From: an uncultured virus (IMG/VR IMGVR_UViG_3300034021_000643)
Taxonomy: Duplodnaviria > Heunggongvirae > Uroviricota > Caudoviricetes
Length of the DNA stretch: 58,817 nucleotides
Reading direction: 5' to 3' (one strand)
Virus record (IMG/VR): IMGVR_UViG_3300034021_000643
Position 1 is the first letter of the stretch, and the number at the start of each line of letters is the position of its first letter. Of the stretch, positions 35,016 through 54,267 are shown one piece after another. The notes under the pieces are model-generated. The model did not search any database, had not been told where the DNA came from, and saw only the letters and a list, made by a program, of their open reading frames with translations. The translations under genes were made by a program, and so were the position numbers.

Positions 35016-35714
35016 CTAGTCTTTTCTATCGCCGAACAACTGCAAGAGATTTAGGAACAGGTTGATAAAGTCCATGTAAAGGGTCAATGCACCCGATACT
35101 TCTACCGCATCACTGGTATCCACTGAAACCATTTCACGTATCTTTTGTGTGTCGTAGGCAGTTAGTCCAAGGAAGATGACAATTGCCAATGCTGAGATCA
35201 CCATCTGCATGACTGTGCTACCAATAAAGATATTAACAATGCTGGCAATGATGATGGCTATCAAACCCACAAACATGAACTTGCCCATGCTGTCTAGATT
35301 CTGTTTGGTAAAGTATCCATATCCGCTCATCACGGCAAACAAGACGGCTGCTCCCATGAATGCACTAACAATGCTGCCCATGGTAAACACTGCAAAAATC
35401 ATTGCAAAGCTCAAGCCCATCAAGGCCGCAAAACCATGTAGGCATAACTGCGCTACACCTTTGCTGGGATTGTTACCTAGCACATAGCTGACGCCAAATA
35501 TGGCGGCCAGGGGTGCAAAGATCACGATCCATTTTAGCACACCTGTGAAGAAGAATTGCAGCAGCTCAGGTGTGGTGCCCACCCAAAAACTCACCAACAT
35601 TGATACTATGACTGCTAGACTCATGTGTCCGTAGACACGGCCCATGGCTGCGTTGACTTGTTCTGCTGAGCGGTAACTTAATACGTCCCCGCCTGTGTAA
35701 TTTGTTCCGAACAT
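35016..35714 (-). CDS. Bax inhibitor-1/YccA family membrane protein
   Basis: About 7 TM segments; YDTQKI, GALTLYMDFINLF; RBS aaggag; TTGACT-N17-TATAAT promoter (35746-35774). Confidence 0.9.
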   Translation of the reverse strand: MFGTNYTGGDVLSYRSAEQVNAAMGRVYGHMSLAVIVSMLVSFWVGTTPELLQFFFTGVLKWIVIFAPLAAIFGVSYVLGNNPSKGVAQLCLHGFAALMGLSFAMIFAVFTMGSIVSAFMGAAVLFAVMSGYGYFTKQNLDSMGKFMFVGLIAIIIASIVNIFIGSTVMQMVISALAIVIFLGLTAYDTQKIREMVSVDTSDAVEVSGALTLYMDFINLFLNLLQLFGDRKD

Positions 35715-35846
35715 TTTGAACTCCTTTGTGGTTGCTGTATATTTAATTATACTGTATAATATACTAACAGTCAACATGTGATTTTGACAAAAACCGCCAA
35801 ATCACACCGATATCAATAAATACGCATATAATAGGAACCACCCATC

Positions 35847-39641: not shown

Positions 39642-39752
39642 TCAACCAAATATGATAGTGCCTATGCCTGCAGTCCACAGCAGGAGAGCCTGGGCAATGC
39701 CAAAGTGGAACAAGAACCATGTAACAGCGATCCATCCAATCAGTTTAACCAT
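39642..39752 (-). CDS. 36-aa membrane peptide (not in ORF track)
   Basis: MVKLIGWIAVTWFLFHFGIAQALLLWTAGIGTIIFG; promoter plus AGGAGCGG RBS. Confidence 0.6.
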   Translation of the reverse strand: MVKLIGWIAVTWFLFHFGIAQALLLWTAGIGTIIFG

Positions 39753-39865
39753 TGCCGCTCCTTTGTTGCTATGTGTTGATTATACAACCAAAAAGCCTCG
39801 ATGTCAACCCCACGAAGTGCCCAGGCGAGTTGCAGGGTCTAGTGGTAGGGTTGACACGTTGGCAA

Positions 39866-40252
39866 TTAGTCCACCCAGCTTTCTACCATCATCACGGGCT
39901 TTTTCAGCACACGCTTGACGAAATCCTCGGGCTCATCGTCAGTGCGCACTAACACGAATCCCATGCTTTCTACCAGGTCCACAGAGCAGATCTGAAGGTC
40001 CAAGCCTGCGGCCTCAAAGGCAATGTTCATCTTTGTAAGTGCATACTTGACGCCTGCGTCAAAGGCCGCATACTCACCGTCTGCTGTGTCCTCAAAGTCG
40101 AACTCCTGCTCCATAATGTTCACGTAGTCCTGACCGTCTGCTACGATGAACTTGCCGATCTTCTTCCAGTTGCTCTGCTTCTCGCTGTCAAAGTAGTCAC
40201 AGCACTCGTTAATGTCAAACGAGGCAAAGTTGTCATAATTTACTTTAGCCAT
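39866..40252 (-). CDS. Hypothetical early protein
   Basis: Promoter plus AGGAGCGAA RBS. Confidence 0.75.
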   Translation of the reverse strand: MAKVNYDNFASFDINECCDYFDSEKQSNWKKIGKFIVADGQDYVNIMEQEFDFEDTADGEYAAFDAGVKYALTKMNIAFEAAGLDLQICSVDLVESMGFVLVRTDDEPEDFVKRVLKKPVMMVESWVD

Positions 40253-40333
40253 TTGGTTCGCTCCTATTGCTTTGTTACTATGTGTGTATTATAACACCTT
40301 TTGGATAACCCGTCAACCACCCGGGTTATTGGA

Positions 40334-40540
40334 CTAGTAGCTTTGGTGACTGTGACCAATGCGGTAGACTTGTGTGCCCCGGGCAACCTCTTCGTCTTCA
40401 CCTTCTATGGTGTAGGCTTCTGGCAACATGATAGTTGCCAACTCGCCATAGCAGTAGTAACCGCTCTCGGTTACTACCAACTCTGCGTCCTGAGGCAATG
40501 CCTGCAATGCCTGGATCATGTGTGCTACTGTTATTGTCAT
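40334..40540 (-). CDS. Hypothetical early protein
   Basis: Promoter plus AGGAGCGAT RBS. Confidence 0.7.
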   Translation of the reverse strand: MTITVAHMIQALQALPQDAELVVTESGYYCYGELATIMLPEAYTIEGEDEEVARGTQVYRIGHSHQSY

Positions 40541-40638
40541 ATATCGCTCCTACTGTTTGTTTGTTGCTATGTGTGTATTATATGACAGATTGGCTGGGTT
40601 GTCAACCAAATTCAAATATAACCCTAGATCGAGTAGGG

Positions 40639-41586
40639 TTATTCCGTAGCTTCGAAAAACAGGGGATTCAATGGCGCAGATCCCTGGGCCTGATCACGGA
40701 TTCTATCTTGGGCAAACTGGATGTAGTCTGCATCAATGTCAAATCCAATGTAGTCCAAGCCCTGACGCTGCGCGGCCACAGCACTGGTTCCTGATCCCAT
40801 GAATGGATCCACCAACACTCCCGACTTGACTCCGCTGAACCGTATGCACTGTTCGATTAGGGCCACGGGGAACGTGGCGGGATGACTGCCCCTGTGCAGC
40901 TCTCGATTGGCTATGGTATCATAGGGCACATACCAGCTGTTGCCCCGGCATCGAACTGCTGGACGTGGTTTCTGACTAGCCATCTTCTGTGCTAGATCAG
41001 CTGCAAGTTTGGCCTGTTCAGCAGCAGTGGCTCGACGATTGAAGTCTTTGATGTCTGTGAATCCCATCTTCTTGGCCAAACGCCCACGAACGCGGCCGGA
41101 GTTGTCAATGTTGCAGTCCCACATGTAAGGCACTCCAACCGCCAACTTGTCACAGACCACAGCGCCGGTTTTGGTGAAGTGAAACAGATGTTCCCACGTG
41201 GGATTAGCGAATCGTGTGCTGTTGATGGGTTTGAAATGCCCAGAAGTCACGTCATTGACTGCGATGCTCTTGACCCATGTAAAATTGTTCTGCAGGACGA
41301 AATGTCTGCGAGCGATCATGCCCACATCCATGCCCACCCAGGGATCGATGTTGCTGTAGCCCATGTTCAACCAAAAGTGGCCTGTGTCTTTGAGGCAGTG
41401 CTTGACGGCAACAAAAACCCCGTCCAACCATTCTAGATATTCCTGTCTGGGTTTGTTGTCCTGATAGGTGCTGTAGTCGATTCCCAAGTTGTAGGGCGGG
41501 GAAGTTGTGACCATGTCCACACTGGCTGCGGGAAGGGACAGCATGCCTGCCACGCAGTCTTGTAGGTGAATGATGTTGGTCTGCAT
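40639..41586 (-). CDS. DNA methyltransferase, beta class (N4-C/N6-A)
   Basis: TSPPY, HPATFP, DPFMGSGTS. Confidence 0.92.
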   Translation of the reverse strand: MQTNIIHLQDCVAGMLSLPAASVDMVTTSPPYNLGIDYSTYQDNKPRQEYLEWLDGVFVAVKHCLKDTGHFWLNMGYSNIDPWVGMDVGMIARRHFVLQNNFTWVKSIAVNDVTSGHFKPINSTRFANPTWEHLFHFTKTGAVVCDKLAVGVPYMWDCNIDNSGRVRGRLAKKMGFTDIKDFNRRATAAEQAKLAADLAQKMASQKPRPAVRCRGNSWYVPYDTIANRELHRGSHPATFPVALIEQCIRFSGVKSGVLVDPFMGSGTSAVAAQRQGLDYIGFDIDADYIQFAQDRIRDQAQGSAPLNPLFFEATE

Positions 41587-41603
41587 GTGATATTTACGTG
41601 GGG

Positions 41604-41858
41604 TTAGTCCGCATAGATAGAAACGTGAACCGCGTTGCTGCGAAGTGTGGTCTGGCGCATGTGATCGTATCTAGGTCCACGATAGCGCACACGAACACGC
41701 TGCCCGGGACTGGCTCGTTTGACCAAGGCCCTGAAGTATTCAGCTTGGTCTATGGGAACCTGTTTGACCACGCTGAGTTCGTTGACAGGACTGCGATATT
41801 GTTGTATCATTGCTTGTTCGTCTGCGGTCAGCACAGTGAATGCCAAGAATTTGTTCAT
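41604..41858 (-). CDS. Hypothetical protein
   Basis: RBS aaggagc; RVRYRGPR. Confidence 0.65.
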   Translation of the reverse strand: MNKFLAFTVLTADEQAMIQQYRSPVNELSVVKQVPIDQAEYFRALVKRASPGQRVRVRYRGPRYDHMRQTTLRSNAVHVSIYAD

Positions 41859-41874
41859 GATCTGCTCCTTGTTG

Positions 41875-42105
41875 TTATCCAAATGCCTTGTATAGTCCCA
41901 CAAAGCCTATCAGCAGTGCTACCACGTTGACTGTGAACTGAGGTAGGTTACGCACACGCACGGTCCATGCAAGGAATGCCACTGTGCCTATGAATGCTGC
42001 GATGATGTTCCAGGGATATGCTTCTGGACCCATAGCGTTGAGCACATGCATGGCGATAATGGCCGCTGCTCCGGTCCACTGTAAGATGTCATTTGTTCTG
42101 TTCAT
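41875..42105 (-). CDS. Small membrane protein (leaderless)
   Basis: Three hydrophobic segments; ATG 6 nt after -10. Confidence 0.65.
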   Translation of the reverse strand: MNRTNDILQWTGAAAIIAMHVLNAMGPEAYPWNIIAAFIGTVAFLAWTVRVRNLPQFTVNVVALLIGFVGLYKAFG

Positions 42106-42145
42106 GTGTGTATTATAACACTGAACAGCCAGATTGTCAACCAAA

Positions 42146-42535
42146 TTAGGTGTTGTTTTTCTGCAACAGATCAGCGCCGTCCTCTTCGGAGATCACCAAC
42201 CTCACATCCTTCATCCTGTGGGCAATGGCATCTATCAACGTGGCCTTGTCATTTCCCTGTCCAAGGAACGTGGAATCATCCTTGCGGTAAGCGAAGATCT
42301 GATTGCCCTGTTGCTCTAGGGTGATTTCTACCACGGTCAAGTCCTTGGCTTCCTCGACATCTTCCGGCTGCCATCCTGGTGATTGGATCTTGATCATGGC
42401 TCGGAGTAGGTCCTGTTCAGAGACCTTCAAGGCTCGCAACAGTTGCCGGAATCCATCGAGATGCACCTGTCTTGATGCTCTCCATCCTATGAAGATCCCC
42501 ACAGCTGCTGCGATGATTAGTTCTGTCATGTCCAT
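42146..42535 (-). CDS. Hypothetical protein with N-terminal TM anchor (leaderless)
   Basis: ATG 6 nt after -10; FLGQG motif. Confidence 0.7.
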   Translation of the reverse strand: MDMTELIIAAAVGIFIGWRASRQVHLDGFRQLLRALKVSEQDLLRAMIKIQSPGWQPEDVEEAKDLTVVEITLEQQGNQIFAYRKDDSTFLGQGNDKATLIDAIAHRMKDVRLVISEEDGADLLQKNNT

Positions 42536-42632
42536 ATTTATATTATACTGGATTTTGGATCAAAAGTCAACCGTCTAGCAACGGGGCCTGTGGGGTCAAG
42601 AAGAAACCCTACAAGGTGTAGGGTCTTTGCGT

Positions 42633-42779
42633 TTAATAGACAACGTCGTCTAGTTCTATTGCAAGTGCATTAAAAGCATTTTGTATGCGCTCGTGTTCGT
42701 CTAGTCCTACTTGTTCTAGCATGTCTTGCAGTTGCAACATTAAGCTGTCGATTTTTTGTTTAGCTTGTTTGCTTGTCAT
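42633..42779 (-). CDS. 48-aa hypothetical protein (not in ORF track)
   Basis: MTSKQAKQKIDSLMLQLQDML...; own promoter. Confidence 0.55.
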   Translation of the reverse strand: MTSKQAKQKIDSLMLQLQDMLEQVGLDEHERIQNAFNALAIELDDVVY

Positions 42780-42834
42780 CTTTTACTTTCTGTTAAAAAT
42801 GTATTATAGCACAAGTTGTCCAAAATGTCAAGCC

Positions 42835-42910
42835 AAAAAAAAAGACCCTAGGGTTACTAGGGTCTATCAAGGTTGCTGATTACCGAGAGCGAATCGGGTT
42901 ATTCAGCAAC
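42835..42910 (-). ncRNA. Candidate 3'-UTR structured RNA 1: hairpin with loop UUCGCUC plus terminator
   Basis: GUUGCUGA..CCGA-UUCGCUC-UCGG..UCAGCAAC, then AGACCCUAG/CUAGGGUCU stem and U-run. Confidence 0.5.
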
Positions 42911-43210
42911 AGCTTCTGCCTTCGCGACAGTAGTTGTAGTTACCTTGGCAGCTGTGGCCGAAGGGTTCTTCTTGACTACGTAGGCTACAGCAGCTTCGAT
43001 AGCTGCGTTGCCCTTGCCAAAGCCTGTGCTCACCATGTGCGCACCGATCTCCGCTTTGGTCATCTCATGTGGAAGATCCACGAGCTGCACGTCTGTGTGA
43101 CCGTTCTTGGCCAGGATCTTGACACGCATGGTGTCGTTGGCGAAACGAACCTTGGTCTTGCCTTCGTATGTTGAAACGCCTGCTACTGCAAACTTTTTAT
43201 CTGTTGCCAT
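42899..43210 (-). CDS. Hypothetical protein
   Basis: FAVAGVS..KVRFAND; own promoter; RBS gaggt. Confidence 0.75.
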   Translation of the reverse strand: MATDKKFAVAGVSTYEGKTKVRFANDTMRVKILAKNGHTDVQLVDLPHEMTKAEIGAHMVSTGFGKGNAAIEAAVAYVVKKNPSATAAKVTTTTVAKAEAVAE

Positions 43211-43298
43211 GATGTTACCTCTTTCTGTGTGTGTTAAAAATATGCCAATCATTCAGCATGTTATTAGTATAGCATACCAAATTCAAACAGTCAACCAT

Positions 43299-43475
43299 TC
43301 ATTTTACCAAATTAACCTGAATAGTGACACTCTCTTTCTCGTCAAGGGCGGTGATGAACTCATCGTCAAAGACCAGATCCTGCATGCTAAGGTCGATCAT
43401 TTCTTCGACTCTAGCCATATCGGGTGTGCCGTTCCCAGCACAAACCACGTTGAAAACAAATTGATATTCTCTCAT
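43299..43475 (-). CDS. Hypothetical protein
   Basis: Coupled to upstream ORF. Confidence 0.55.
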   Translation of the reverse strand: MREYQFVFNVVCAGNGTPDMARVEEMIDLSMQDLVFDDEFITALDEKESVTIQVNLVK

Positions 43476-43765
43476 AACCATCTATCCTTTGCCAAGGTAA
43501 AGTTAACCAGGGCCGAGTCACGAAAGAACACATTGCCGTCTGTGTCCCAGGCCCATTCCGGCACTGCCCGACCCGCCTTCTTGATAGCCCACGCTTCGTG
43601 AATGAAACAGCCTGGGCCATTCATCTGCGTCATGTAGCATCGCATTTCGTAGAAGGCCATGAGTCCTTGGGCACGAGCTTCTTCACCGTACCAATGACCG
43701 CTATTGGTTCTGTGTGTCCAAACACCGTAGCCACTATAGCGTCGATCAAGTTTGATTACTTTCAT
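43472..43765 (-). CDS. Hypothetical protein
   Basis: ATGA-coupled; MKVIKLDRRY. Confidence 0.65.
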   Translation of the reverse strand: MKVIKLDRRYSGYGVWTHRTNSGHWYGEEARAQGLMAFYEMRCYMTQMNGPGCFIHEAWAIKKAGRAVPEWAWDTDGNVFFRDSALVNFTLAKDRWL

Positions 43766-44379
43766 TCTGCGATCAGCGCCTTCTTCTCGGCACCATCCTT
43801 GATCCAAGCAGTGAGCTCTTCTTCATTCTCAGCCTCGTATTCCCGGATGCTTTCTGCAATGCCAAATGCTTCGTTGATCTCTGGATAGTGCTGTTCGATA
43901 TCATCGGCACTCATGCCTTCGAGGCTGATCTCTTCATCATTGCCATCACCGTAGGCACCAGCAAAAGCCATACCTGATTCGTAATACATAGCGTTGACCT
44001 TGAAGCCCAACTCTTCTAACTTCACATAGGCATTCACAGGAGGAGCCCAGGCTGAATCAAAGTAGGTGTGTAGCATCTTGCCATCTGGATGCACATCAGT
44101 GCTTCCTTCACAGCCTACATCCCATTTGGTTCCCCACTCGCCTACACAGAAGTCATACCAGTTGCCATAACCGTATTTCTCTAGATTCTCAGCGGTCTTG
44201 CGTTCTAGTTCTCTCTGCTCGTCACCGTCACCCAATCGTCCTGCAACGATCTGCAGATCCGTTGGCACTGGAATGAACTCATTCAAGAACTCTCCACGCA
44301 ACAGTGCATCTGCGGCACGCTTGATCATTGCTGGGTCTTCGTGTTCCAGTGTTAGGTTGTTGTTGCACCAATTAGGCAT
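43762..44379 (-). CDS. DUF1281/YubB-like ferredoxin-fold protein
   Basis: MPNWCNN, WYDFCVGEWGTKWD, FDSAWAPP, YYESGM. Confidence 0.75.
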   Translation of the reverse strand: MPNWCNNNLTLEHEDPAMIKRAADALLRGEFLNEFIPVPTDLQIVAGRLGDGDEQRELERKTAENLEKYGYGNWYDFCVGEWGTKWDVGCEGSTDVHPDGKMLHTYFDSAWAPPVNAYVKLEELGFKVNAMYYESGMAFAGAYGDGNDEEISLEGMSADDIEQHYPEINEAFGIAESIREYEAENEEELTAWIKDGAEKKALIAE

Positions 44380-44388
44380 GTTCGCTCC

Positions 44389-44598
44389 TTAAGATGTTGT
44401 TAAAAGATTCATCAGGTTCCGGTTGAGTGTGTCCATCTCACTCTGCTCAACATAGAAGTCTGTGCGTGGATCCCAATACTTGCCCTCTTTGGGATCGTAA
44501 TACAAAACCCTACCAAGGAAGTTGAATGGGCCTTCTAACCCTGGGCGTGGACCATACTTGTCACGCATTGTATCGAATTCAAATGTCTTATAACCCAT
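44389..44598 (-). CDS. Hypothetical early protein
   Basis: GLEGPF..YYDPKEGKYWDP; AAGGAGAGCGA RBS. Confidence 0.75.
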   Translation of the reverse strand: MGYKTFEFDTMRDKYGPRPGLEGPFNFLGRVLYYDPKEGKYWDPRTDFYVEQSEMDTLNRNLMNLLTTS

Positions 44599-44632
44599 TA
44601 CTCGCTCTCCTTAGTATGTGTATATTATACTA

Positions 44633-44863
44633 TCAGTTGCTCAATTTGTCAACCGATTCGTAGTCTTTAACCATACGGTACAAAGGGTCTATGATCTCCA
44701 CGTGCTCAAGCTCGAAATCGTCTGTTGCCCAATCCATCCACTCTTCTGAGAACACTTCCACTTCCCCTGCCTGGAGCATCTCCCGAGCTTCTTCTTCAGT
44801 TGCTGCGTCGACCACGTAGATTTCCGATATGATGGCATTGCGCCAAAATGTGAACTTCTTCAT
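44633..44863 (-). CDS. Hypothetical protein
   Basis: ATGA-coupled. Confidence 0.65.
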   Translation of the reverse strand: MKKFTFWRNAIISEIYVVDAATEEEAREMLQAGEVEVFSEEWMDWATDDFELEHVEIIDPLYRMVKDYESVDKLSN

Positions 44864-45126
44864 CGGTAGTCTTTCTTGTCACCGTAGAGTTCGTTGTGGG
44901 TGTAGCCTCTTTGATACTCTGCTACTTCTTCCTCAGACAACTGATCAACACGCAGACCTGAGTCGCCTCCCACACCGCCGTAGTGTGGATCACGTGATCG
45001 ACCGTAGTAGGAATCAGCACTGCCACGATCAAACAGGCAACCGTGTTGCTTGCGATCGAACTGCCATCCCTTGAGGATCTTTATGATACGCTCTTGTTCT
45101 GTGTCAGATTCTAGTTTAATATACAT
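44860..45126 (-). CDS. Hypothetical early protein
   Basis: FDRGSADSYYGR; AAGGAGCGAA RBS. Confidence 0.75.
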   Translation of the reverse strand: MYIKLESDTEQERIIKILKGWQFDRKQHGCLFDRGSADSYYGRSRDPHYGGVGGDSGLRVDQLSEEEVAEYQRGYTHNELYGDKKDYR

Positions 45127-45180
45127 CTTCGCTCCTTGTTATTCACTATACCTATAGTATAACACCGATGATCCAATCTG

Positions 45181-45630
45181 TCAACCAAAAAGTGTTTTGC
45201 GGGCTTTGAGCGGAATCTTGCCGCTGGGATAATCACGCACTAGATCAGTGCCCTGTTTGAACACTACTCGAACCTTGGGGAACTCTGTAACATCGCTGAT
45301 GATGTAGTCGATGCTCTCGGCGTGCTCGTGTAACACCACTGTGTCGATCTTACGACCCGCCCCTAACATGGTGCTAGGGGCATAGCTGGCTCCACCTTTG
45401 GTAAAGCCTTTGAGATCAAACTTGCGTCCAGTGGTCTTACTCACGTGATCATAGCCCTTGGCGTCCACGAACTCCAAGTCCGGGAACCACGTAGGAATCG
45501 TGTGCTCCAAGAACTTGCTGGCCACACGACCGTCTTGAAACAGAGTGTGCAGTTGCTCCACAGGCATATCTCCAAATTGGATTTTGCCTGTGAAGTCAAA
45601 TTCGTATGTGGTGTTGTATTGTGTGTTCAT
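45181..45630 (-). CDS. Putative PD-(D/E)xK nuclease (restriction-endonuclease-like), leaderless
   Basis: E..(KFLE)..KGYDHV..KFDLKGF pattern; ATG 6 nt after -10. Confidence 0.45.
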   Translation of the reverse strand: MNTQYNTTYEFDFTGKIQFGDMPVEQLHTLFQDGRVASKFLEHTIPTWFPDLEFVDAKGYDHVSKTTGRKFDLKGFTKGGASYAPSTMLGAGRKIDTVVLHEHAESIDYIISDVTEFPKVRVVFKQGTDLVRDYPSGKIPLKARKTLFG

Positions 45631-45681
45631 GCTTGTATTATAGCAAGGTTTCACCACATTGTCAACCACTTGGGAAAGACC

Positions 45682-46008
45682 CTATCCGCGCCTGGGTTTC
45701 ATCAGAGCCTGTGCCTCTTTGCGCAGTTGTCCCGCTTCCTTGTACCTGCGGTCTGCCTGCTCCTTGAGGTCAGCTGATCGTGCTTTAGCCAGCTTCCCAC
45801 CACCAAACTCACGTTCAATGTAAAAGTAGATCAAGCTGTTCTTGATCATAACAGTAAGGTCACTGCCCGAGTCCTCGGGGCAGATAAAACGCACAGGGCA
45901 TGAACCCCAACCGCCACTTTCTAGGAACTCTGCGTAGTATCGTCTGTGATCTTTGTTGTAAGGATCAAAGGCCACCAAGGGCCTTGCTAGGTATTCTAAT
46001 CTACTCAT
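45682..46008 (-). CDS. Hypothetical protein
   Basis: FDPYNKDHR..WGSCPVRF. Confidence 0.7.
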   Translation of the reverse strand: MSRLEYLARPLVAFDPYNKDHRRYYAEFLESGGWGSCPVRFICPEDSGSDLTVMIKNSLIYFYIEREFGGGKLAKARSADLKEQADRRYKEAGQLRKEAQALMKPRRG

Positions 46009-46175
46009 GCTCCTTGGTAGGGACTATAGATCTCTTCGTCCTCTACATCCTTAACCCCCATGGTCTCAAGTGCACCTAAGACTAGCTCTACAGGGCACTC
46101 TAACAAAGCAGCGATCATCTTGGCACTGTGGCCTTCGATGTATAGTTCTTGGATATCGTAATCCAGATTACTCAT
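46005..46175 (-). CDS. 56-aa hypothetical, possible HTH (not in ORF track)
   Basis: MSNLDYDIQELYIEGHSAKMIAALLECPVELV; ATGA overlap with next gene. Confidence 0.6.
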   Translation of the reverse strand: MSNLDYDIQELYIEGHSAKMIAALLECPVELVLGALETMGVKDVEDEEIYSPYQGA

Positions 46176-46180
46176 TGCGC

Positions 46181-46306
46181 TCATTTAACAGTCTCCTTCA
46201 TTACTTCTTGAGTTTTACCAACGGCCTTATCTACAGCAGATGCTACACCAGAGATTCCCACTGTGGCCACGAACATACCAGCGATGAATGCCAAAATGAT
46301 TTTCAT
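46181..46306 (-). CDS. 41-aa membrane/secreted peptide (not in ORF track)
   Basis: MKIILAFIAGMFVATVG...; GGAGCGAA RBS. Confidence 0.55.
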   Translation of the reverse strand: MKIILAFIAGMFVATVGISGVASAVDKAVGKTQEVMKETVK

Positions 46307-46455
46307 TAGTCTTCGCTCCATTCACGAAAGTTAGGTTTAGGATCATTGCGATGTTTGAAACGATACCACAACATCTGAGGAATGCCCATGCGCCAGGCAT
46401 ACATAAAGTCCATTACAATCATACCTGCTACGAAAGCTAAAATCAGTTCTATCAT
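46306..46455 (-). CDS. 49-aa membrane peptide (not in ORF track)
   Basis: MIELILAFVAGMIVMDF...; promoter plus AAGGAGCGG RBS. Confidence 0.55.
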   Translation of the reverse strand: MIELILAFVAGMIVMDFMYAWRMGIPQMLWYRFKHRNDPKPNFREWSED

Positions 46456-46643
46456 TACCGCTCCTTCCTTGTTAATATGTCTATATTATAACACCAATCT
46501 ATCCAGATGTCAACACCTAGATTACACGCACACGTAAGCAGCGGGGCCTGTGGCATTTGTGCCACAACCCCTGGCACTTCAGTCTGAGTGTGGTGGTAGA
46601 TCATAGTCCATAGGATCGTTAGGGAACCTAGGTGTGGTAGGGC

Positions 46644-47849
46644 TCATGCAGTCTCCTTCTCATAGATCACAGTCTGACCAAACGGTGCGTTGGCCTGTGT
46701 ATTGCCTTTGACGATAAAGATTGTATCGCAGTAGTCCTCGTCACCCCAACCACCGCATGGGTAGCCGTCTGTGAACATAATAAACTTCTTGGGCTGGATA
46801 CCGTTCTCTTCCATGAATGTCCAATTGACTTCAAAGTCTGTGCCACCGCCACCCTGTGGTTCATACTCTTCTAACTCGTGACCTTCGTCGTGTGTGATGG
46901 TCTTCCAGTTGTAGATGTCTGTGTCAAAGCACCACAAGTTAATGCGGAAGTCCTCATACTGATCCATGATGCCTTTGATCTCGCTGAGGAATGCAGTTGC
47001 ATCTTCGTCACCAATTGAACCTGACATATCAATGCTGATTGCCACGTCGATAGTAGTTGCTTCTTTCATGCCCGGCAGTATGGCACCTGAGTGCATACTC
47101 TTGCGATTCACACGCTGAAAGGAGTAGTCGTTGCGAACGATGCTTTGGATCTCTTGTTGCACCAACTGGCGCCAGTCCATCTTAGGCTCAGTCATGTTCT
47201 TGATCATACGCATGATGCCTGCAGGAGTCTTGCCTGCACCTGCGGCCGCGGCACTTTGGATCATTGCGTCTTTGACCTCTTGCTTGATCTTTTCTGCTTC
47301 TTCTTTGGTAAGGCTAGGCTTGCCCTTGCCGTCTTTGGTCTTGTCGCCGCCAGCACCAGCACCTTCTTCTTCTTTGATGTGCTCGTCTAAGAGATCGCCC
47401 AATTGCTTGAGCAATTGATCCATAGGGATCTTCTCTGCCTGCTCATACAATTGATCGTAGATCTCTTCCCAAGCCATGCCGCGATACTTTGGATCATAGC
47501 AGATCTTAACTTCAGTGATCTTCTCACCAATGCGTTCGTCTACAAGGATCTGGTTGACAGCGTAGTCTTGTGCGATGTTCGCCAGCATACGATCTCTGCT
47601 ACCGCAACGACCAAAGTGATCAAAGATAGCATGACAGATCTCATGTGCAAAGAGGAACTCTAGTTTCTTAACACTGAGCTTCTTGACGAACTCTGTGTTA
47701 TACATAAAGTCACGACCGTTAGTGGCCGCAGTCGGGCACCAGTCGTCGCTTTGGATCAAACGCATACGAGTGGCCATGTTGCCAAAGAAAGGCGCTTTGA
47801 GTAGCAGTCCTACTCGTGCAGTTGTTAGTTTCTCTACGATTGGGTCCAT
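46644..47849 (-). CDS. Metallopeptidase-like (HExxH) plus VWA domain protein (DUF2201-type)
   Basis: TAATNG, AHEICH, DYAVN; MIDAS DMSGS, GGGGTDF, FTDG. Confidence 0.88.
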   Translation of the reverse strand: MDPIVEKLTTARVGLLLKAPFFGNMATRMRLIQSDDWCPTAATNGRDFMYNTEFVKKLSVKKLEFLFAHEICHAIFDHFGRCGSRDRMLANIAQDYAVNQILVDERIGEKITEVKICYDPKYRGMAWEEIYDQLYEQAEKIPMDQLLKQLGDLLDEHIKEEEGAGAGGDKTKDGKGKPSLTKEEAEKIKQEVKDAMIQSAAAAGAGKTPAGIMRMIKNMTEPKMDWRQLVQQEIQSIVRNDYSFQRVNRKSMHSGAILPGMKEATTIDVAISIDMSGSIGDEDATAFLSEIKGIMDQYEDFRINLWCFDTDIYNWKTITHDEGHELEEYEPQGGGGTDFEVNWTFMEENGIQPKKFIMFTDGYPCGGWGDEDYCDTIFIVKGNTQANAPFGQTVIYEKETA

Positions 47850-47905
47850 GTGTCGCTCTCCTTAGTATGTGTATATTATAGCATCTATTTACACACCTGT
47901 CAACC

Positions 47906-47943
47906 AAAAAAGGTGGGCGGGCAACTCTGAGAAGCTCCCGCCC
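47906..47943 (-). terminator. Rho-independent terminator after AAA gene
   Basis: GGGCGGG...CCCGCCC stem then U-run on the minus strand. Confidence 0.65.
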
Positions 47944-47960
47944 TTGCTATGGGCGAGGTC

Positions 47961-49046
47961 TTAATTCTCCATAGCACTGAGAACATACTTACCGAAACGC
48001 TTGTGGAACTCATCGAAGCTCTTCATCTTCGTTGCATCCAAAGGCAAGTCATAATTGGTAAGTGCAGTCTTGGCACCCATCACAACCAACTCAGTTGGGA
48101 AATTGTCCATCATGTAGCGGAAGAAGCAGTCTGCCATACCATCCCAACCCTTGGCCTTCTTCTCTGCTTGGTCTTTCAACTCATAGCACAAAGACACGGT
48201 CAATGAATACATGGCTGACACTTCTTTGATCTGCAGGTCCTTGACCTTACCGCTGAGGATGTCCTCTGCCTTAGGCAAGCGTCCTGCAATCTTACGGTGA
48301 GCCATAAACTTGGTAGCCAAGCCATCACCAACCGCACCAGCGATCAGGGTGGCCAGTGTGTCGTTGTCGCAGTCATCGTCCTGCAGGAGTTCGCTGACGA
48401 ACACCCAAGAGCGTGGAGTTGCGAATGACTTTGAAGGGCTCTTAGGATCAAAGTCATACAAGTCTTGCTTGGCAAAACCCACATAACCCAAGACCTCTGG
48501 ATGCACCTTGTTGAGCGTAGCCCAGTCTTGGAAGTCATCAAAGTCTACCTTCATCTCCAAGTGGACGAAACGGTTAGCCAACGGAGCTGGCATACGATAT
48601 GTCACACCACGGTCACCTTCACGGTTACCGGCGGCAACCACGTCAACACCTGCAGGCAATTTGTATGTGCCTACACGGCGGTTCAGGATCAACTGATAGG
48701 CCGCGGCTTGCACGGCTGGGGGAGCGGAGTTCAACTCATCCAAGAAGATGATTGCGGTGCTCTCTGGGTCTGTAGGCAGTTCGCTGGGAGGAGCCCAGAC
48801 CATCTTGCCCTGATCAGCATTGTAGTAGGGGATACCCTTGATGTCTGTGGGTTCCCACAGGGCCAGTCGAACGTCAACCACTTCACGGCCTGCCTGCTCG
48901 CCGATCTGCTTGACAACATCACTCTTGCCAATGCCGGGAGGGCCCCACAGGAATGTAGGACGACGAGTTTGAATCGCCTTACGGATCGCCTTCATAGCAC
49001 CCTTAGGGCCTACTTGACGGACGGAAATATCAGTTTGCTTTGACAT
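47961..49046 (-). CDS. MoxR-like AAA+ ATPase
   Basis: GPPGIGKS, FLDELN, AAGNR, LANRF, TPRSW. Confidence 0.9.
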   Translation of the reverse strand: MSKQTDISVRQVGPKGAMKAIRKAIQTRRPTFLWGPPGIGKSDVVKQIGEQAGREVVDVRLALWEPTDIKGIPYYNADQGKMVWAPPSELPTDPESTAIIFLDELNSAPPAVQAAAYQLILNRRVGTYKLPAGVDVVAAGNREGDRGVTYRMPAPLANRFVHLEMKVDFDDFQDWATLNKVHPEVLGYVGFAKQDLYDFDPKSPSKSFATPRSWVFVSELLQDDDCDNDTLATLIAGAVGDGLATKFMAHRKIAGRLPKAEDILSGKVKDLQIKEVSAMYSLTVSLCYELKDQAEKKAKGWDGMADCFFRYMMDNFPTELVVMGAKTALTNYDLPLDATKMKSFDEFHKRFGKYVLSAMEN

Positions 49047-49122
49047 AAGACCTCGCTAGTTAAAAACGGTTAAAACAATTAATCTCTCAGTATCATAAGT
49101 ATAACACCAATCTGCTCAGTTG

Positions 49123-49752
49123 TCAACCTACGATTTTCACATAATTCAACTGTGTTGTATTATCGCCACGCTGGGCTTTGACTTTGGCTTTGATGCTGAC
49201 TGTGCCCTTAAACTCCTCAGAAGCCCAAAAGTCCACAAAGCTCTCACCCATACGGGCCGTGACACGCCACTTGCCATAGTTCTGGTTCCAGTAGCATTTG
49301 ATCACTTCGATGTCTCCCTGGATGCGATCACCAACAGCAGCAACAAGCTGGGTGCTGAACCTGATCTCAGTTGTGAGTTGGTTCTTGGCTTGATCGCGCA
49401 GCATAGCAGCTGGCAAGCATGAGACCACAGCGAAATCAAACATATCGCGACCTGTGAACTCATCCTTTTGGGCGATCTTCAGGGCCTGACGTTCAAAGTC
49501 GTTGATCTTGCCTGCGATCTCTTTGAGTAGAAAGCCGTTGAAGTAGTTGCGAACCTCACGACCCCTCTCGATATCTGCAGCTGTAACCAGCGAGAAGGAG
49601 TTGCTGCGGAGCCAATCTTTGACCATCTGCTTGTTGGCCTGCTTCTCGATCACATCTAGGTTTTGAGCGTATACAGGCTCTTTGAGATAGCCCCCGTTGA
49701 TACGATCTGCAGCTACCGCGGCACCCCATACTTGATCTGCTGTGAATTGCAT
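49123..49752 (-). CDS. Hypothetical early protein with possible C-terminal OB fold
   Basis: Promoter plus AGGAGCGAG RBS; ends TQLNYVKI. Confidence 0.7.
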   Translation of the reverse strand: MQFTADQVWGAAVAADRINGGYLKEPVYAQNLDVIEKQANKQMVKDWLRSNSFSLVTAADIERGREVRNYFNGFLLKEIAGKINDFERQALKIAQKDEFTGRDMFDFAVVSCLPAAMLRDQAKNQLTTEIRFSTQLVAAVGDRIQGDIEVIKCYWNQNYGKWRVTARMGESFVDFWASEEFKGTVSIKAKVKAQRGDNTTQLNYVKIVG

Positions 49753-49832
49753 ACTCGCTCCTAAGTTCTTACTATGATGCTAGTATACTATCATTTATCC
49801 AATCTGTCAACCTCTTTTGGAGAGTGCCGGCC

Positions 49833-49902
49833 AAAGAAAAAGGGTGTTGCTTTTACACAACACCCTCCAAAGACGCCCCGGGAGCGAATCGGCTTGTCTT
49901 TG
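49833..49902 (-). ncRNA. Candidate 3'-UTR structured RNA 2: hairpin with loop AUUCGCUCC plus terminator
   Basis: CAAAGAC..CCG-AUUCGCUCC-CGG..GUCUUUG, then AGGGUGUUG/CAACACCCU stem and U-run. Confidence 0.5.
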
Positions 49903-49911
49903 AAACCCTAA

Positions 49912-50181
49912 TTAAAGAGTGATGCCCAATGCCTTGGCCTTGTAGCCTAGAGCAACGATTTCACGGCTTGGCTGGCCCATCACGTATTCTGTGACAGTCA
50001 CGCCATTGCCTGCTGTGCGTTGGTTAGCATAAACAGCATAACCATTCTGCTTGATGCGGCTGACTTCTGCTGACAGGTTGCCTACACCCATTTTACGAGC
50101 TTGAGCTGCTGTAAGAGCTGCACCATTGTAGAGTGCGTTGAAGACCTTGAAAGTCTTTGTTTCTGGATTGAAACGTTTCAT
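49912..50181 (-). CDS. Winged-helix/HTH DNA-binding protein
   Basis: LTAAQARKMGVGNLSAEVSRIKQNGYAV pattern. Confidence 0.65.
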   Translation of the reverse strand: MKRFNPETKTFKVFNALYNGAALTAAQARKMGVGNLSAEVSRIKQNGYAVYANQRTAGNGVTVTEYVMGQPSREIVALGYKAKALGITL

Positions 50182-50259
50182 GTTTAAGTTTCCTTTGTTG
50201 TTGAGCTGAACTTCATCAGCGTTTTATTATAATAACAGAACGCTGATCTAAGGTCAAGC

Positions 50260-50460
50260 TCAATCCTTCCGTTTTACAGACACATTCGCTCGAAAGAACG
50301 TGCCCAAGATAACCACAGCACACCATGTCCAAAATGTGAACTGGATAGCCAGCACAGGGAACAGAGTATTCAGGGCCCAAATCACCAACCAGGGTCCAAT
50401 GGCCAATAGCAGGATGATCAGTGCTATGGCCACGGTGACCTTTACGATACTATCAAACAT
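50260..50460 (-). CDS. Small membrane protein
   Basis: IWALNTLFP..FWTW; two TM segments. Confidence 0.7.
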   Translation of the reverse strand: MFDSIVKVTVAIALIILLLAIGPWLVIWALNTLFPVLAIQFTFWTWCAVVILGTFFRANVSVKRKD

Positions 50461-50668
50461 TTTCAATCTCCTCGAGTTCTTGTAGCCGTTTCAGCTCTGC
50501 GATCTCTGCATCAATGGCCTTGGTGTTGGTCTTGAGGTTAGAGCTTCCTTTCTTGTAGACCACCCAATAGTGATCTGCACAATAGCTCTTGCCCTCAAGA
50601 TTCTTTTGTCCACACATAGTGTAGGGCCACTTGGTCTGCTCTGACCCTATGTATTGGCACTCACTCAT
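50453..50668 (-). CDS. Small Cys/His zinc-binding protein (similar to the GcrA C-terminus)
   Basis: CQYIG..MCG..SYCADH. Confidence 0.6.
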   Translation of the reverse strand: MSECQYIGSEQTKWPYTMCGQKNLEGKSYCADHYWVVYKKGSSNLKTNTKAIDAEIAELKRLQELEEIENV

Positions 50669-50669
50669 A

Positions 50670-51770
50670 TTAGGCCATGCCCTTCATAACAGTGACCTTG
50701 GCCATGTTCTGCCAGTTAGTAGGGAAGCTCTTCTTCAAGTCTGCACACTTCAAAACAGTTCGCAGGCTCAGCTCTCGCATGTGGCTACGATTCTCAAGGA
50801 TGAAGTCCACGATCTCGTCCTTAGCAACATCCTCAAGCTCATAGGAGTCCAACATGCCGTCTTTGACGATCTGCTTGATACGCAGAACCTTCTCACGGTC
50901 TGTGTCCATGCGCAGATCGATGAAGTGACAGCGTGACTCCAATGCCGCCAAGTGCTCCTGCAGTTTCTTAGAGCGAACATTCTCAAACTTCAAGTTGGTG
51001 ATAAAGATAGCACCGCCCTTGAAATCAAACTTGTCAGGCACTCCTTCTGAGCGTAGCACACGGCTGTCAGTGTTCCACGAAATGGTACGCTTCTTTGAAG
51101 TGTCCAAAGCGGCCTTGAGAATGTTAAGTGCAACGTCGTCCAAAAGAATGCTGTCGCAGTCATCGAACACAATGATGTTCTTGGGATCACTGTATTTGTA
51201 GAGCTTGCTATACAGGCCAATGGCACTCATAGCACCCTTGACGATCTCATACTTGGGCTTGCGCTGTCCCATGAGATCGAACAGGTCATCTTTGGCTAGA
51301 ACTTCTTCAACACCAAAGCTCTTGCCCACACCTGGAGGGCCTGTGACAATCATAGCACGAACGTCACCAGTCTTGACTGCTTTGGTCATGTCCTTGAGGA
51401 TCTCAAAGCGCAGTCTAGTGCGCTCAATGATCTGCTCATCAGTTTCGTCTGCGACAGCAGAGTCTGGCACTTTGACCTGGCTAAAGTCTGTAACAGTAGC
51501 ATCGTTCTTGCCAGCCTTAGCGGGTTTAGCCAGAGCCTGCAACATGGTAACACCAGCAGGAGCCGCCATGGTAGCAATGTCACTTTGGTTGCACCAGACC
51601 TTACAGGTCTCACCGCCACCCTTGATGTTGTAGCCTGAACGAGCCTTGATGTAGCCTTCCCAACCGTTGTTGGCTTCTGTGACAAAGTCCCCAACCATAT
51701 CCAGCTCAATGCCGGGATAGATCTGATTGCTTTTGGCGCCGTATTGGCCTTGGCTTAGTGTGATACGCAT
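50670..51770 (-). CDS. AAA-family ATPase
   Basis: GPPGVGKS, VFDDCD, FITN, ALESR; AGGAGCGAA RBS before ATG 51770. Confidence 0.85.
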   Translation of the reverse strand: MRITLSQGQYGAKSNQIYPGIELDMVGDFVTEANNGWEGYIKARSGYNIKGGGETCKVWCNQSDIATMAAPAGVTMLQALAKPAKAGKNDATVTDFSQVKVPDSAVADETDEQIIERTRLRFEILKDMTKAVKTGDVRAMIVTGPPGVGKSFGVEEVLAKDDLFDLMGQRKPKYEIVKGAMSAIGLYSKLYKYSDPKNIIVFDDCDSILLDDVALNILKAALDTSKKRTISWNTDSRVLRSEGVPDKFDFKGGAIFITNLKFENVRSKKLQEHLAALESRCHFIDLRMDTDREKVLRIKQIVKDGMLDSYELEDVAKDEIVDFILENRSHMRELSLRTVLKCADLKKSFPTNWQNMAKVTVMKGMA

Positions 51771-51859
51771 GGATTTCGCTCCTGTGTGTGTTGTTAACAT
51801 AGTCTCTATTATGCACTCAAACAGGGGAGTTGTCAACCCCTGTTTGTGGCCTGTTGTTT

Positions 51860-52294
51860 TTATGCCACATCTGCTGCTTCTATCGCAGCAATTGCGTCTT
51901 TGAGTGCTACCAAACCGTTCTTGATCAAGCCCTCAGTTTCGTATACAGCACCCGCATACCATACTCCGTCCCGCATGACATAGTAGTATTCACCATAGCA
52001 ACCCTGGACCTGATCGAGGAACTCTTCGAATGAGTGTGCCACAGCCCAGGGAGTGCTGTTAACAAACTCTTCAACGTCCTCACCCTCAGCTTCCCGATCC
52101 TCGTAGAAGTTCATTTCCTCTAGGGTCTCTTTGACGCCCGAATTGTCCCCACGTGCAATCAGAGCATTTGCTGCTGTGGAATCATAGTGGCTCAACAGAA
52201 TGCGCCCTGTGTAGTCCAGATAGCCGTCGTAGTGGCAGTAGACGCTTTTACAGACATCGCCATGCATGACTGCTACTCTTGATCGTGTGCCCAT
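51860..52294 (-). CDS. Hypothetical phage protein
   Basis: MGTRS..VYCHYDGY. Confidence 0.75.
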   Translation of the reverse strand: MGTRSRVAVMHGDVCKSVYCHYDGYLDYTGRILLSHYDSTAANALIARGDNSGVKETLEEMNFYEDREAEGEDVEEFVNSTPWAVAHSFEEFLDQVQGCYGEYYYVMRDGVWYAGAVYETEGLIKNGLVALKDAIAAIEAADVA

Positions 52295-52563
52295 TATGCA
52301 ATCTCCTCTGAGTATTCGTAGAATGTAACTGACGGATCCAACTTCTTCAACTGCTTGGCAGCTGTCATCAATTCCCTGTAACGGCGCTGGACTTCTGTTC
52401 TGCTCAGCTCACCATCACATGTAAGGTTCTCTGGACTTAGTGCAGAGTCAATCATGTCCGCTACTCGTTGACGACCCTGGGCTGTGGCGATCTCGTATTG
52501 CTCGCCTTTGAAGAATGAGTTCCAGTGATTCTTCTGCTCTATAAACTTCTCTAATGCTTTCAT
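52294..52563 (-). CDS. Hypothetical early protein
   Basis: LSPENLTCDGE; AGGAGCGAA RBS. Confidence 0.75.
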   Translation of the reverse strand: MKALEKFIEQKNHWNSFFKGEQYEIATAQGRQRVADMIDSALSPENLTCDGELSRTEVQRRYRELMTAAKQLKKLDPSVTFYEYSEEIA

Positions 52564-52621
52564 AGTTCGCTCCTATGTTTGTTAGTGTAAGTGTCTATTA
52601 TAGCACCAAACGGCAGTTCTG

Positions 52622-52831
52622 TCAACCTTCAAGCCAACAATCCCTGGCCTGCTCTGTGGTTATTGTTTGCCCACCAATGTAGTCACCGTGGAACCCTGCC
52701 TTGTTCTCTAGGACCAGAGCATGTCCCATGTAGCTGCTCTTGATCTCTATGATCTGCCCACATTGTTCAACATCAGCCTTGAAGCCTACCCAATCACCGA
52801 CCTTGACGGTCTTGCCTTCTACCTGTGCCAT
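52622..52831 (-). CDS. Hypothetical protein (SH3/KOW-like)
   Basis: VKVGDWVGFKADVEQCGQI; RBS aaggag. Confidence 0.7.
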   Translation of the reverse strand: MAQVEGKTVKVGDWVGFKADVEQCGQIIEIKSSYMGHALVLENKAGFHGDYIGGQTITTEQARDCWLEG

Positions 52832-52842
52832 GCTGGGTCTCC

Positions 52843-53013
52843 TTAGGCTGGTTCAAACAATTTTTGGAATTCTGCTTTGACTCTAAAGTAGGCCCTAAGC
52901 TCTGCTAGGGTGAACTCTTCTGAGTTAGCATCAATGTAGATCATGGTCTCCAGCATGCCTGTATTCAAACGGGCTTTGATGCCTTCGATAACGTTAATGT
53001 CTTCTGTAATCAT
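52843..53013 (-). CDS. Hypothetical early protein
   Basis: Promoter plus AAGGAGCGAT RBS. Confidence 0.65.
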   Translation of the reverse strand: MITEDINVIEGIKARLNTGMLETMIYIDANSEEFTLAELRAYFRVKAEFQKLFEPA

Positions 53014-53066
53014 ATCGCTCCTTGTTAACATGTGTGTATTATAGCAGTGTTTTGCCACGCTGTCAA

Positions 53067-54107: not shown

Positions 54108-54184
54108 TGGCCAGCCCTACTGGATTCGAACCAGTGGCCTACAGCTTAGAAGGCTGTTGCTCTATCCAACTGAGCTAAGGGCTG
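54108..54184 (-). tRNA. tRNA-Arg (anticodon UCU)
   Basis: Cloverleaf: CAGCCCT/AGGGCTG acceptor, ACAGC-CTTCTAA-GCTGT, GGTTCGAATCC, encoded CCA. Confidence 0.93.
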
Positions 54185-54189
54185 CTGTG

Positions 54190-54267
54190 TGGTGGGCCCC
54201 CCGAGAGTCGAACTCGGCACCAATGGATTATGAGTCCACTGCTCTAACCAACATGAGCTAGGGGCCC
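54190..54267 (-). tRNA. tRNA with CAU anticodon, Ile2 (lysidine) type
   Basis: GGGCCCC/GGGGCCC acceptor, GTGGA-CTCATAA-TCCAT, GTTCGACTC, CCA; lacks fMet C1:A72 mismatch and GGG/CCC anticodon stem. Confidence 0.88.

Follow-up and report, generated by a model that had tools for sequence, protein, structure and literature searches.

Early-gene start-site tags and complementary hairpin loops in uncultured T4-like phages: a candidate RNA switch

Thirteen early genes of an uncultured freshwater tailed phage (IMG/VR record IMGVR_UViG_3300034021_000643) start behind an extended ribosome-binding site (RBS), which we call the tag, and two other early genes of the same phage end in a hairpin whose loop displays the complement of this tag. 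We analysed a stretch of 58,817 nucleotides (nt), hereafter the window, which is the second half of the 120,817-base virus record and to which coordinates refer unless another sequence is named. We consider it likely, from comparison of related sequences, that loops and tags pair as RNAs; that the loops would repress the tagged gene set in trans is the reading we favour, with rather less assurance. A sequence-only reading of the window had proposed that the loops pair with the RBSs, and this is supported here by the conserved loop, covariation in its stem, the strand on which U-tracts follow it and the way tag and loop change in step from one lineage to another.

Between 39 and 55 kb the window holds a block of short minus-strand genes, most with a sigma70-like promoter of their own, which we take to be the early region. 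All 13 tagged starts are on the minus strand, with the tag 2-7 nt upstream of the ATG. Ten read AGGAGCG, one UGGAGCGAA (46314) and two the variant GGAGAGCGA (44603 and 47854), as follows (aa, amino acids):

39756..39761, minus strand, tagged RBS GGAGCG(G) of a 36-aa gene, ATG at 39752
40259..40264, minus strand, tagged RBS GGAGCG(AA), ATG at 40252
40545..40550, minus strand, tagged RBS GGAGCG(AU), ATG at 40540
44383..44388, minus strand, tagged RBS GGAGCG(AA), ATG at 44379
44603..44608, minus strand, variant tag (GG)AGAGCG(AG), ATG at 44598
45130..45135, minus strand, tagged RBS GGAGCG(AA), ATG at 45126
46314..46319, minus strand, tagged RBS GGAGCG(AA), ATG at 46306
46459..46464, minus strand, tagged RBS GGAGCG(G) of a 49-aa gene, ATG at 46455
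47854..47859, minus strand, variant tag (GG)AGAGCG(AC) of a DUF2201 metallopeptidase/VWA gene, ATG at 47849
49756..49761, minus strand, tagged RBS GGAGCG(AG), ATG at 49752
51777..51782, minus strand, tagged RBS GGAGCG(AA) at the start of an NrdC.10-like AAA ATPase, ATG at 51770
52568..52573, minus strand, tagged RBS GGAGCG(AA), ATG at 52563
53016..53021, minus strand, tagged RBS GGAGCG(AU), ATG at 53013

The sequence-only reading had noted a non-standard extended RBS shared by early genes, and every site it named was recovered. It had also suggested setting the tag at RBS positions against background: among gene-caller starts of the 120.8-kb record, 12 of 35 in the early block are tagged and 0 of 109 elsewhere (Fisher p 8e-9), a count that omits the thirteenth tagged start because the 49-aa gene at 46455 is absent from the gene calls. 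One extra AGGAGCG (30576, minus strand) lies off any start.

The two genes that carry the loops, g43 and a winged-helix-turn-helix-like (HTH) gene, have the following parts:

42835..42865, minus strand, intrinsic-terminator-like hairpin and U-tract at the end of the g43 transcript (folding)
42872..42910, minus strand, hairpin 1, with the U-variant loop AUUCGCUCU at 42886-42894; its 5' arm overlaps the g43 stop codon
42899..43210, minus strand, g43, a 103-aa conserved phage protein, carrier of hairpin 1, RBS untagged (homology and structure searches)
43242..43259, minus strand, predicted 5'-end hairpin of the g43 mRNA, sigma70-like -35 box at 43294
49832..49867, minus strand, intrinsic-terminator-like hairpin and U-rich tract at the end of the HTH transcript (folding)
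49868..49902, minus strand, hairpin 2, with loop AUUCGCUCC, the family consensus, at 49881-49889 (folding)
49912..50181, minus strand, 89-aa winged-HTH-like gene, carrier of hairpin 2, RBS untagged (PF14090, E 5e-4, just under the cut-off)
50205..50220, minus strand, predicted 5'-end hairpin of the HTH mRNA, sigma70-like -35 box at 50257

The core CCGATTCGCTC occurs in exactly two copies in the 120.8-kb record, which are the two hairpins, against 0.01 expected from an order-3 Markov model. Both 3' untranslated regions (UTRs) had been described as a core hairpin followed by a terminator, and all four hairpins do fold. The z value is -4.1 for element 1 and weaker, at -1.6, for element 2; in full transcripts the loops are predicted to be open (unpaired probability 0.75-0.99). 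Two further details of that description were right, namely that the carriers lack the extended RBS (theirs read GAAAGAGGU and AAAGGAAAC) and that copy 2 has G.U as its closing pair only on the opposite strand, the transcribed strand having A.C. Each carrier has a single copy of the hairpin in this genome, compared with two to four in tandem in some relatives.

The record encodes a T4-type portal, major head protein, sheath and terminase, a gp32-like single-stranded DNA-binding protein and UvsX, and it is probably a fragment of a larger genome, since its relatives run to about 350 kb (357,559 bases in the relative G001). No close cultured phage was found: the HTH protein is 36% identical to that of Pelagibacter phage HTVC008M, the ATPase 48% to that of PA5oct, and g43 has no match among cultured relatives. 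The proposal of an RNA switch depended on the loop being conserved in relatives. Of 59 distinct 3' flanks of the HTH gene, 55 have the loop, as do 15 of 19 for g43 homologues; the four g43-type flanks that lack it belong to distant paralogues in L073 and L076. Overall, the loop follows three unrelated genes in relatives, often as two to four tandem hairpins ahead of a U-tract. Across the 19 g43 hairpins, double changes occur at all four inner stem pairs (6 cells; 0/500 shuffles), beating every slid control. A U-tract lies 3' of the element on the UUCGCUCC (loop) strand in 36 of 41 cases and on the other strand in none (elements found by pattern, at tag-rich loci). Rfam recognises only tRNAs at gathering score in the window, and gives nothing below E 0.6 in eight related loci or below E 1.1 in 42.5-50.5 kb. 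The 15-nt core of the form found here (class A, below) is present in about 590 IMG/VR stretches, chance hits included. From these comparisons we judge the element to be real, and to be widespread in freshwater as well as marine viromes.

Between lineages, tag and loop change together. Class A combines the tag GGAGCGA with the loop UCGCUCC, and class B the tag GAGGGCA with the loop UGCCCUC. When loci were fetched by protein homology only (166 of 174 with the ATPase) and reduced to 42 lineages, 14 had tag A with loop A, 13 had tag B with loop B and none had a cross-pair, the remainder being four lineages tagged without a detected loop and 11 unclassified. A class table that this one supersedes, built on redundant and pattern-selected loci, had given loop A at 104 and loop B at 14 of 129 class-A loci, and loop A at 3 and loop B at 26 of 30 class-B loci. 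The early starts of G001 have (A/G)AGGGCA tags and its ATPase is followed by three UGCCCUC loops, an arrangement that recurs at many further loci; the UGCCCUC hairpin of G001 is not picked up by a pattern requiring TTGCCCTC but is found by reading the whole record. In long records one tag or the other predominates (33 records). A third lineage (13 loci, seven of them picked by loop pattern) pairs the tag GCGAGG with CCUCGCUC in the loop, and this tag is present in 14 of 32 distinct leaders of the AUCCUCGCUCC-loop lineage vs 9 of 384 in class A. In the window, the RBS of a MoxR-type ATPase, AGCGAGGU (49047-49060, minus strand), is kept in relatives, equals the third-lineage tag and pairs partly with the loop (-6.9 kcal/mol).

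The suggestion that each hairpin matches one RBS class is not supported as a family rule, with 26 of the 36 GGAGAGCG-tag loci that have a loop showing only the C loop and 10 showing both, and with the U-variant loop restricted to the closest relatives. In this genome, hairpin 1 does gain most with the two GGAGAGCG targets, and it is possibly specialised locally for variant-tag targets. Two minor observations concern the border between the classes. A mixed lineage (L073, L275-L277) has both GAGGGCA and GGAGC(G/A) starts with class-B loops, possibly a transition state, and in class-B arrays (for example L281, L283, L296 and L304) the 3' stem arm behind many loops contains CACGCUCU/CC, and with it the class-A core, which could be a relic or route of the switch.

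The tag also reaches genes of another kind. In G005, late csgF-like and curlin-repeat genes preceded by TAAATA boxes have tag A; their counterparts in G001 have tag B, despite 74% identity between the two CsgF proteins. In G001 csgF lies ~300 kb from the early genes behind another type of promoter, and its tag has switched alongside theirs. Tag-A early genes and a tag-A csgF occur together in four more-complete records (G005, G010, G013 and G016); distant csgF genes, at about 45% identity, mostly have no tag. Among 14 distinct leaders of tag-A csgF genes, 11 have the sequence CCGGGAGCGAA, which is complementary to the loop and to the 3' arm of its hairpin. This extension is found in 0 of 212 early leaders, and only two of the 14 retain the full second arm. 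The complement has been kept while the self-hairpin has been lost, which favours base-pairing over a decoy for a loop-binding protein. Outside csgF, related jumbo-phage contigs (L125, L142, L237; L105, L197, L201) have the full reverse-complement core 5' of a small membrane protein, of a small basic protein and, where it overlaps a GTG start, of a small gene of no recognised type.

The carriers themselves avoid the tag, which is found at the RBS of 0 of 51 HTH genes and 0 of 19 loop-bearing g43 genes. A 5' hairpin with compensating arms begins 42 of 43 HTH leaders and 21 of 38 leaders of the g43 family, compared with 5 of 206 tagged leaders. These patterns suggest that the carrier mRNAs are stable and exempt and that they accumulate, and since they begin with 5' hairpins the regulators may be whole mRNAs rather than RNAs cut out of the 3' UTR. 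Although 1,629 homologues of g43 are found and its structure is modelled with confidence (pLDDT 81), it belongs to no known family or fold and has no match in the PDB by sequence or Foldseek; the idea that it is an RNA chaperone was dropped, as these searches turned up no RNA-binding fold. Around the HTH gene, a conserved CCGGCACTC-like element (49815-49825, minus strand) lies between its terminator and the next promoter, as at 64 of 72 HTH-type loci, and an inverted repeat, ATCAGCGTT...AACGCTGAT (50216-50247), spans the -10 box of the HTH promoter and overlaps the 5' hairpin, a possible operator for HTH autoregulation.

The third gene followed by loops in relatives is the ATPase, whose site has no loop in this genome:

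50670..51770, minus strand, NrdC.10-like AAA ATPase (phrog_1250), tagged here, with loop arrays in its 3' UTR in other lineages (homology)

Where tandem loop hairpins do follow it, the last is often the terminator stem itself, and the ATPase is itself tagged (16 in class A, 24 in class B). The longest complement between the non-coding 3' flank of the ATPase and its own RBS averages 6.68 nt against 5.46 when permuted (34 lineages; 0/10000) and, outside classes A and B, 6.47 against 5.33 nt (19 lineages); 228 of 255 loci were usable, and shared base composition may contribute slightly. Where the 3' flank is coding there is no such excess (4.89 vs 5.10 nt, 19 lineages). The system probably originated in feedback of the 3' UTR of the ATPase mRNA on its own RBS, later widened to a gene set. 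Neither tag class was found in PA5oct, and a low-GC group of ATPases (L307-L349) has no loop behind the gene and no clear tag. PA5oct does have a 3' hairpin behind its ATPase with an 8-nt arm that complements the gene's own leader, buried in the stem and maybe due to chance (L269, 19647-19658 and 20821-20843). Further matched pairs of ATPase RBS and 3' flank occur in L605, L613, L618, L594, L601, L637, L604, L593, L621 and L624, long CU-rich loops among them. The early block ends, downstream of these arrays where the ATPase has them, in a conserved non-coding tract of ~250 nt with G-runs, CAACAGCGC, AAATCACCA, TAAGTACT, TTTTTTGCGCG and GACCCATT, which might be an origin or packaging site (L098, L118-L120, L128, L131, L143, L152, L156, L162, L164, L167, L169).

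The loop 9-mer forms duplexes of -9.8 to -14.3 kcal/mol with tagged starts, compared with -5.6 to -7.9 for a host-type 9-mer complementary to the Shine-Dalgarno (SD) sequence, and with the starts of other genes it reaches -10.6 once and -8.8 or weaker in the rest. In nested co-folding, hairpin 2 gains 1.6-8.6 kcal/mol with 12 of 13 targets, and hairpin 1 gains -10.7 and -3.2 kcal/mol with the two variant-tag targets. We envisage that the HTH and g43 mRNAs, bounded by the 5' hairpin and the terminator, would be long-lived and would act whole or as 3' fragments. The loop, starting with a YUNR-type UUCG, would nucleate on the A-rich leader and form a 7-9 bp duplex over GGAG and the CGA(A) extension, exceeding the pairing of the host anti-SD. 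Such a duplex would block the 30S subunit and damp the tagged set as carrier RNAs accumulate; the carriers would escape, as the tag is absent from their RBSs. With csgF and similar late targets, the duplex would run on into the 3' arm of the hairpin, and repression would be tighter.

Several observations weigh against repression in trans or reduce the evidence for it. As class A is one clade (support 98/96), the A/B table records one evolutionary switch, not 27, and as the csgF leaders share descent they form one line of evidence, not eleven. Folding energy favours the transcribed strand for only 33 of 93 elements of class A and 45 of 86 of class B, so neither it nor G.U counts pick out the strand, and the class-A closing pair (86 A.C, 6 G-C and 1 A-U; n=93) can pair on the opposite strand in every case. 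For 9 of 13 targets, hairpin 1 shows no gain in nested co-folding, a method that does not capture loop kissing. Several tags are predicted to be partly paired themselves (mean unpaired probability 0.23-0.88), the 5' hairpin is missing from many g43-family leaders, and the loop-bearing ATPases are tagged, so pairing in cis is possible there. Of 15 metatranscriptome runs with 5-9% of words, the eight that were aligned yielded contigs of relatives that cover these genes, but being assembled contigs of relatives only, they let no strand, level or end be read; one contig stops at an adapter within loop 1 and three stop at the HTH 5' hairpin or inside it, and we gave these ends no weight. Finally, the sign of the effect is not given by sequence alone.

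This last point bears on the best-surviving alternative, which is that the loops pair with the tags but activate or protect them, by recruiting or handing over ribosomes, by shielding from nucleases or as an extra anti-SD made by the phage. Covariation speaks for pairing and not for its sign, the tagged set includes late csgF and curlin-like genes that need to be expressed, and the CUCC core of the loop resembles the tail of 16S rRNA, which has the same core. However, the SD itself lies within the duplex, whose strength exceeds that of a host-type anti-SD by 3-7 kcal/mol, the carrier mRNAs avoid the tag as would fit an escape from repression, and small RNAs (sRNAs) that cover an SD generally repress (PMC4615179, PMC7398697). 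We therefore regard activation as improbable.

A slightly poorer chance falls to feedback in cis alone, in which only the effect of a 3' UTR on its own RBS or operon would be functional and the tag would have spread passively by recombination of promoter-leader cassettes. It would accommodate the own-RBS complementarity of the ATPase across deep lineages, the tags on loop-bearing ATPases and the similar promoter-leader cassette at almost every early gene. Yet in this genome the loops belong to the HTH and g43 transcripts, each with its own promoter and never with a tag, and the late csgF of G001, so far from the early genes and behind another type of promoter, has a tag that switches with theirs.

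In the reverse arrangement, the tag would be a protein-binding site (CsrA/RegA/RegB-like) and the hairpins opposite-strand decoys displaying a GAGCGAA loop; the sequence-only reading had raised a plus-strand RBS-mimic decoy as its alternative, on account of the closing pair of copy 2. What stands in its favour is the class-A closing pair, pairable on the opposite strand in 93 of 93 elements; moreover, some late leaders hold a full GAGCGAA-loop hairpin, with the L158 copy upstream of a second tag, and the extended GGAG consensus recognised by T4 RegB lies in early SDs (PMC3014915). Against this, U-tracts follow the UUCGCUCC strand only, and the stem that the loop caps is often that of the terminator. 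In class B, a U.G closing pair on the transcribed strand is commoner than A.C (24 vs 11 of 86), and the csgF leaders retain the 5' CCG and drop the second arm. Each switch of tag would also require a matching change in protein specificity, and no RNA-binding fold was found for g43. The decoy is thus disfavoured, and we think it very unlikely.

Just as little credence goes to elements acting as DNA (in recombination, in replication or as operators) or to inverted copies under gene conversion with no role as RNA. Matching inverted copies would co-vary under conversion too, and in many relatives the ATPase arrays border the conserved non-coding tract. Nonetheless, the tags keep SD spacing on the coding strand only, the stems co-vary while their flanks diverge, the loops always lie between stop codon and terminator, and a match of 7-9 nt is probably short for conversion. 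That the tag matches an unusual 16S 3' end of the host is hardly credible: no close cultured relative indicates the host, but the tag stands at 0 of 109 middle and late genes, the hairpins would be left unexplained, and a scan of 185,579 GTDB genomes for a 16S tail ending CGCTCC, covering assembled 16S genes and class A, gave 11 matches, none in 16S context, so that a host 16S end alone does not account for the tag.

Returning to repression by loop-tag pairing, no description of the element was found in the literature searched, although it could be listed in a supplementary motif table. By analogy, it would be like an SD-occluding antisense RNA in action and like a Cuckoo RNA in build. The nearest counterpart of the tag is the start-associated sequence (SAS) of cluster K mycobacteriophages, a conserved, asymmetric repeat that contains an SD and lies a few bases upstream of the starts of non-structural genes, some conserved bases of which do not pair with 16S rRNA and whose RNA or protein partner was left open (PMC3203893). 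The tag is likewise an asymmetric repeat at the SD position of non-structural genes and is conserved beyond 16S pairing, but it differs in sequence and phage group, sharing only the GGAG core with the 13-bp consensus that, along with extended inverted repeats, marks cluster K. The excerpt of PMC3203893 names no partner and no hairpin and reports only single opposite-strand copies, whereas in the present phages the tag has a candidate RNA partner that co-varies with it.

The Cuckoo RNAs of Alphaproteobacteria (RSs0680/CcsR, ar14) consist of two to four adjacent hairpins with variable stems and a fixed anti-SD-like loop (PMC4615179), the very build of the ATPase arrays in relatives. They are bacterial intergenic sRNAs with a generic loop, CCUCCUCCC, and the word "phage" is absent from the text of PMC4615179; here a private loop in mRNA 3' UTRs changes with the phage's own tag. 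CCUCCUCCC does not occur among our loops, which read AUUCGCUCC, (G/A)UGCCCUC or AUCCUCGCUCC and have no Rfam match. OppZ and CarZ of Vibrio cholerae are autoregulatory sRNAs, processed by RNase E from 3' UTRs, that inhibit translation of their own transcript (PMC7398697). They fit the ATPase-type loci, and our seed is similarly placed in the 3' UTR of an mRNA, ahead of the intrinsic terminator that closes it; they are processed sRNAs acting on one operon, whereas one loop here would be a candidate regulator of a dozen separately transcribed genes.

Among phage RNAs, c4 of P1/P7 exposes its seeds in loops and acts in trans. P22 sar and lambda OOP are antisense RNAs that pair with phage mRNA near the translation start (PMC12197685). 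All three differ in having one target each, in temperate phages, as stand-alone RNA genes with no shared tag. T4 RegB, an endoribonuclease, switches off early mRNAs through the extended GGAG consensus in their SD with S1 as cofactor (PMC3014915); the presumed purpose, early-gene switch-off in a T4-type phage, is alike, but RegB is a protein nuclease with no complementary RNA. As for U-turn kissing-loop antisense RNAs (YUNR motif as defined in PMC6562991), YUCG stands at the 5' side of the loop in 91 of 93 class-A elements and class-B loops mostly lack a YUNR motif. The element also differs in one respect from decoys of another kind. Decoys of the CsrB/RsmZ type display the target motif itself in their transcribed loops, whereas here the terminator strand displays the complement of the tag (36 vs 0 of 41).

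Early-gene shut-off in large lytic phages is known mainly through proteins (T4 RegB, RegA). Loop-tag repression, if true, would add a route that works through RNA alone, has a readable address and is common in viromes of both freshwater and marine origin, and it offers a testable candidate answer to what reads start tags of the SAS type. More tentatively, and with somewhat less than even confidence, we suggest that a family of large T4-like phages may run an RNA-addressed regulon, in which a private tag at the RBS of early and some late genes would be read by loops on stable, protein-coding mRNAs of the phage itself, and whose tag-loop pair was re-coded several times from the 3'-to-5' feedback of one gene. 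Were this so, the translation switches of related phages sharing a host would be orthogonal. The classes would also be a source of natural, mutually orthogonal RBS/anti-RBS pairs, testable in E. coli without phage culture.

Some minor features of the region should also be mentioned. Four early promoters (42140, 42570, 45665 and 53440, minus strand) sit 6-8 nt upstream of an ATG, which suggests that their mRNAs are leaderless and would escape RBS-directed control. The window also holds a gene for a Bax-inhibitor-1-like membrane protein (35016-35777) and two tRNAs (54111-54267), and a cluster of 2OG-Fe(II) oxygenase genes lies at 35-46 kb in G000.

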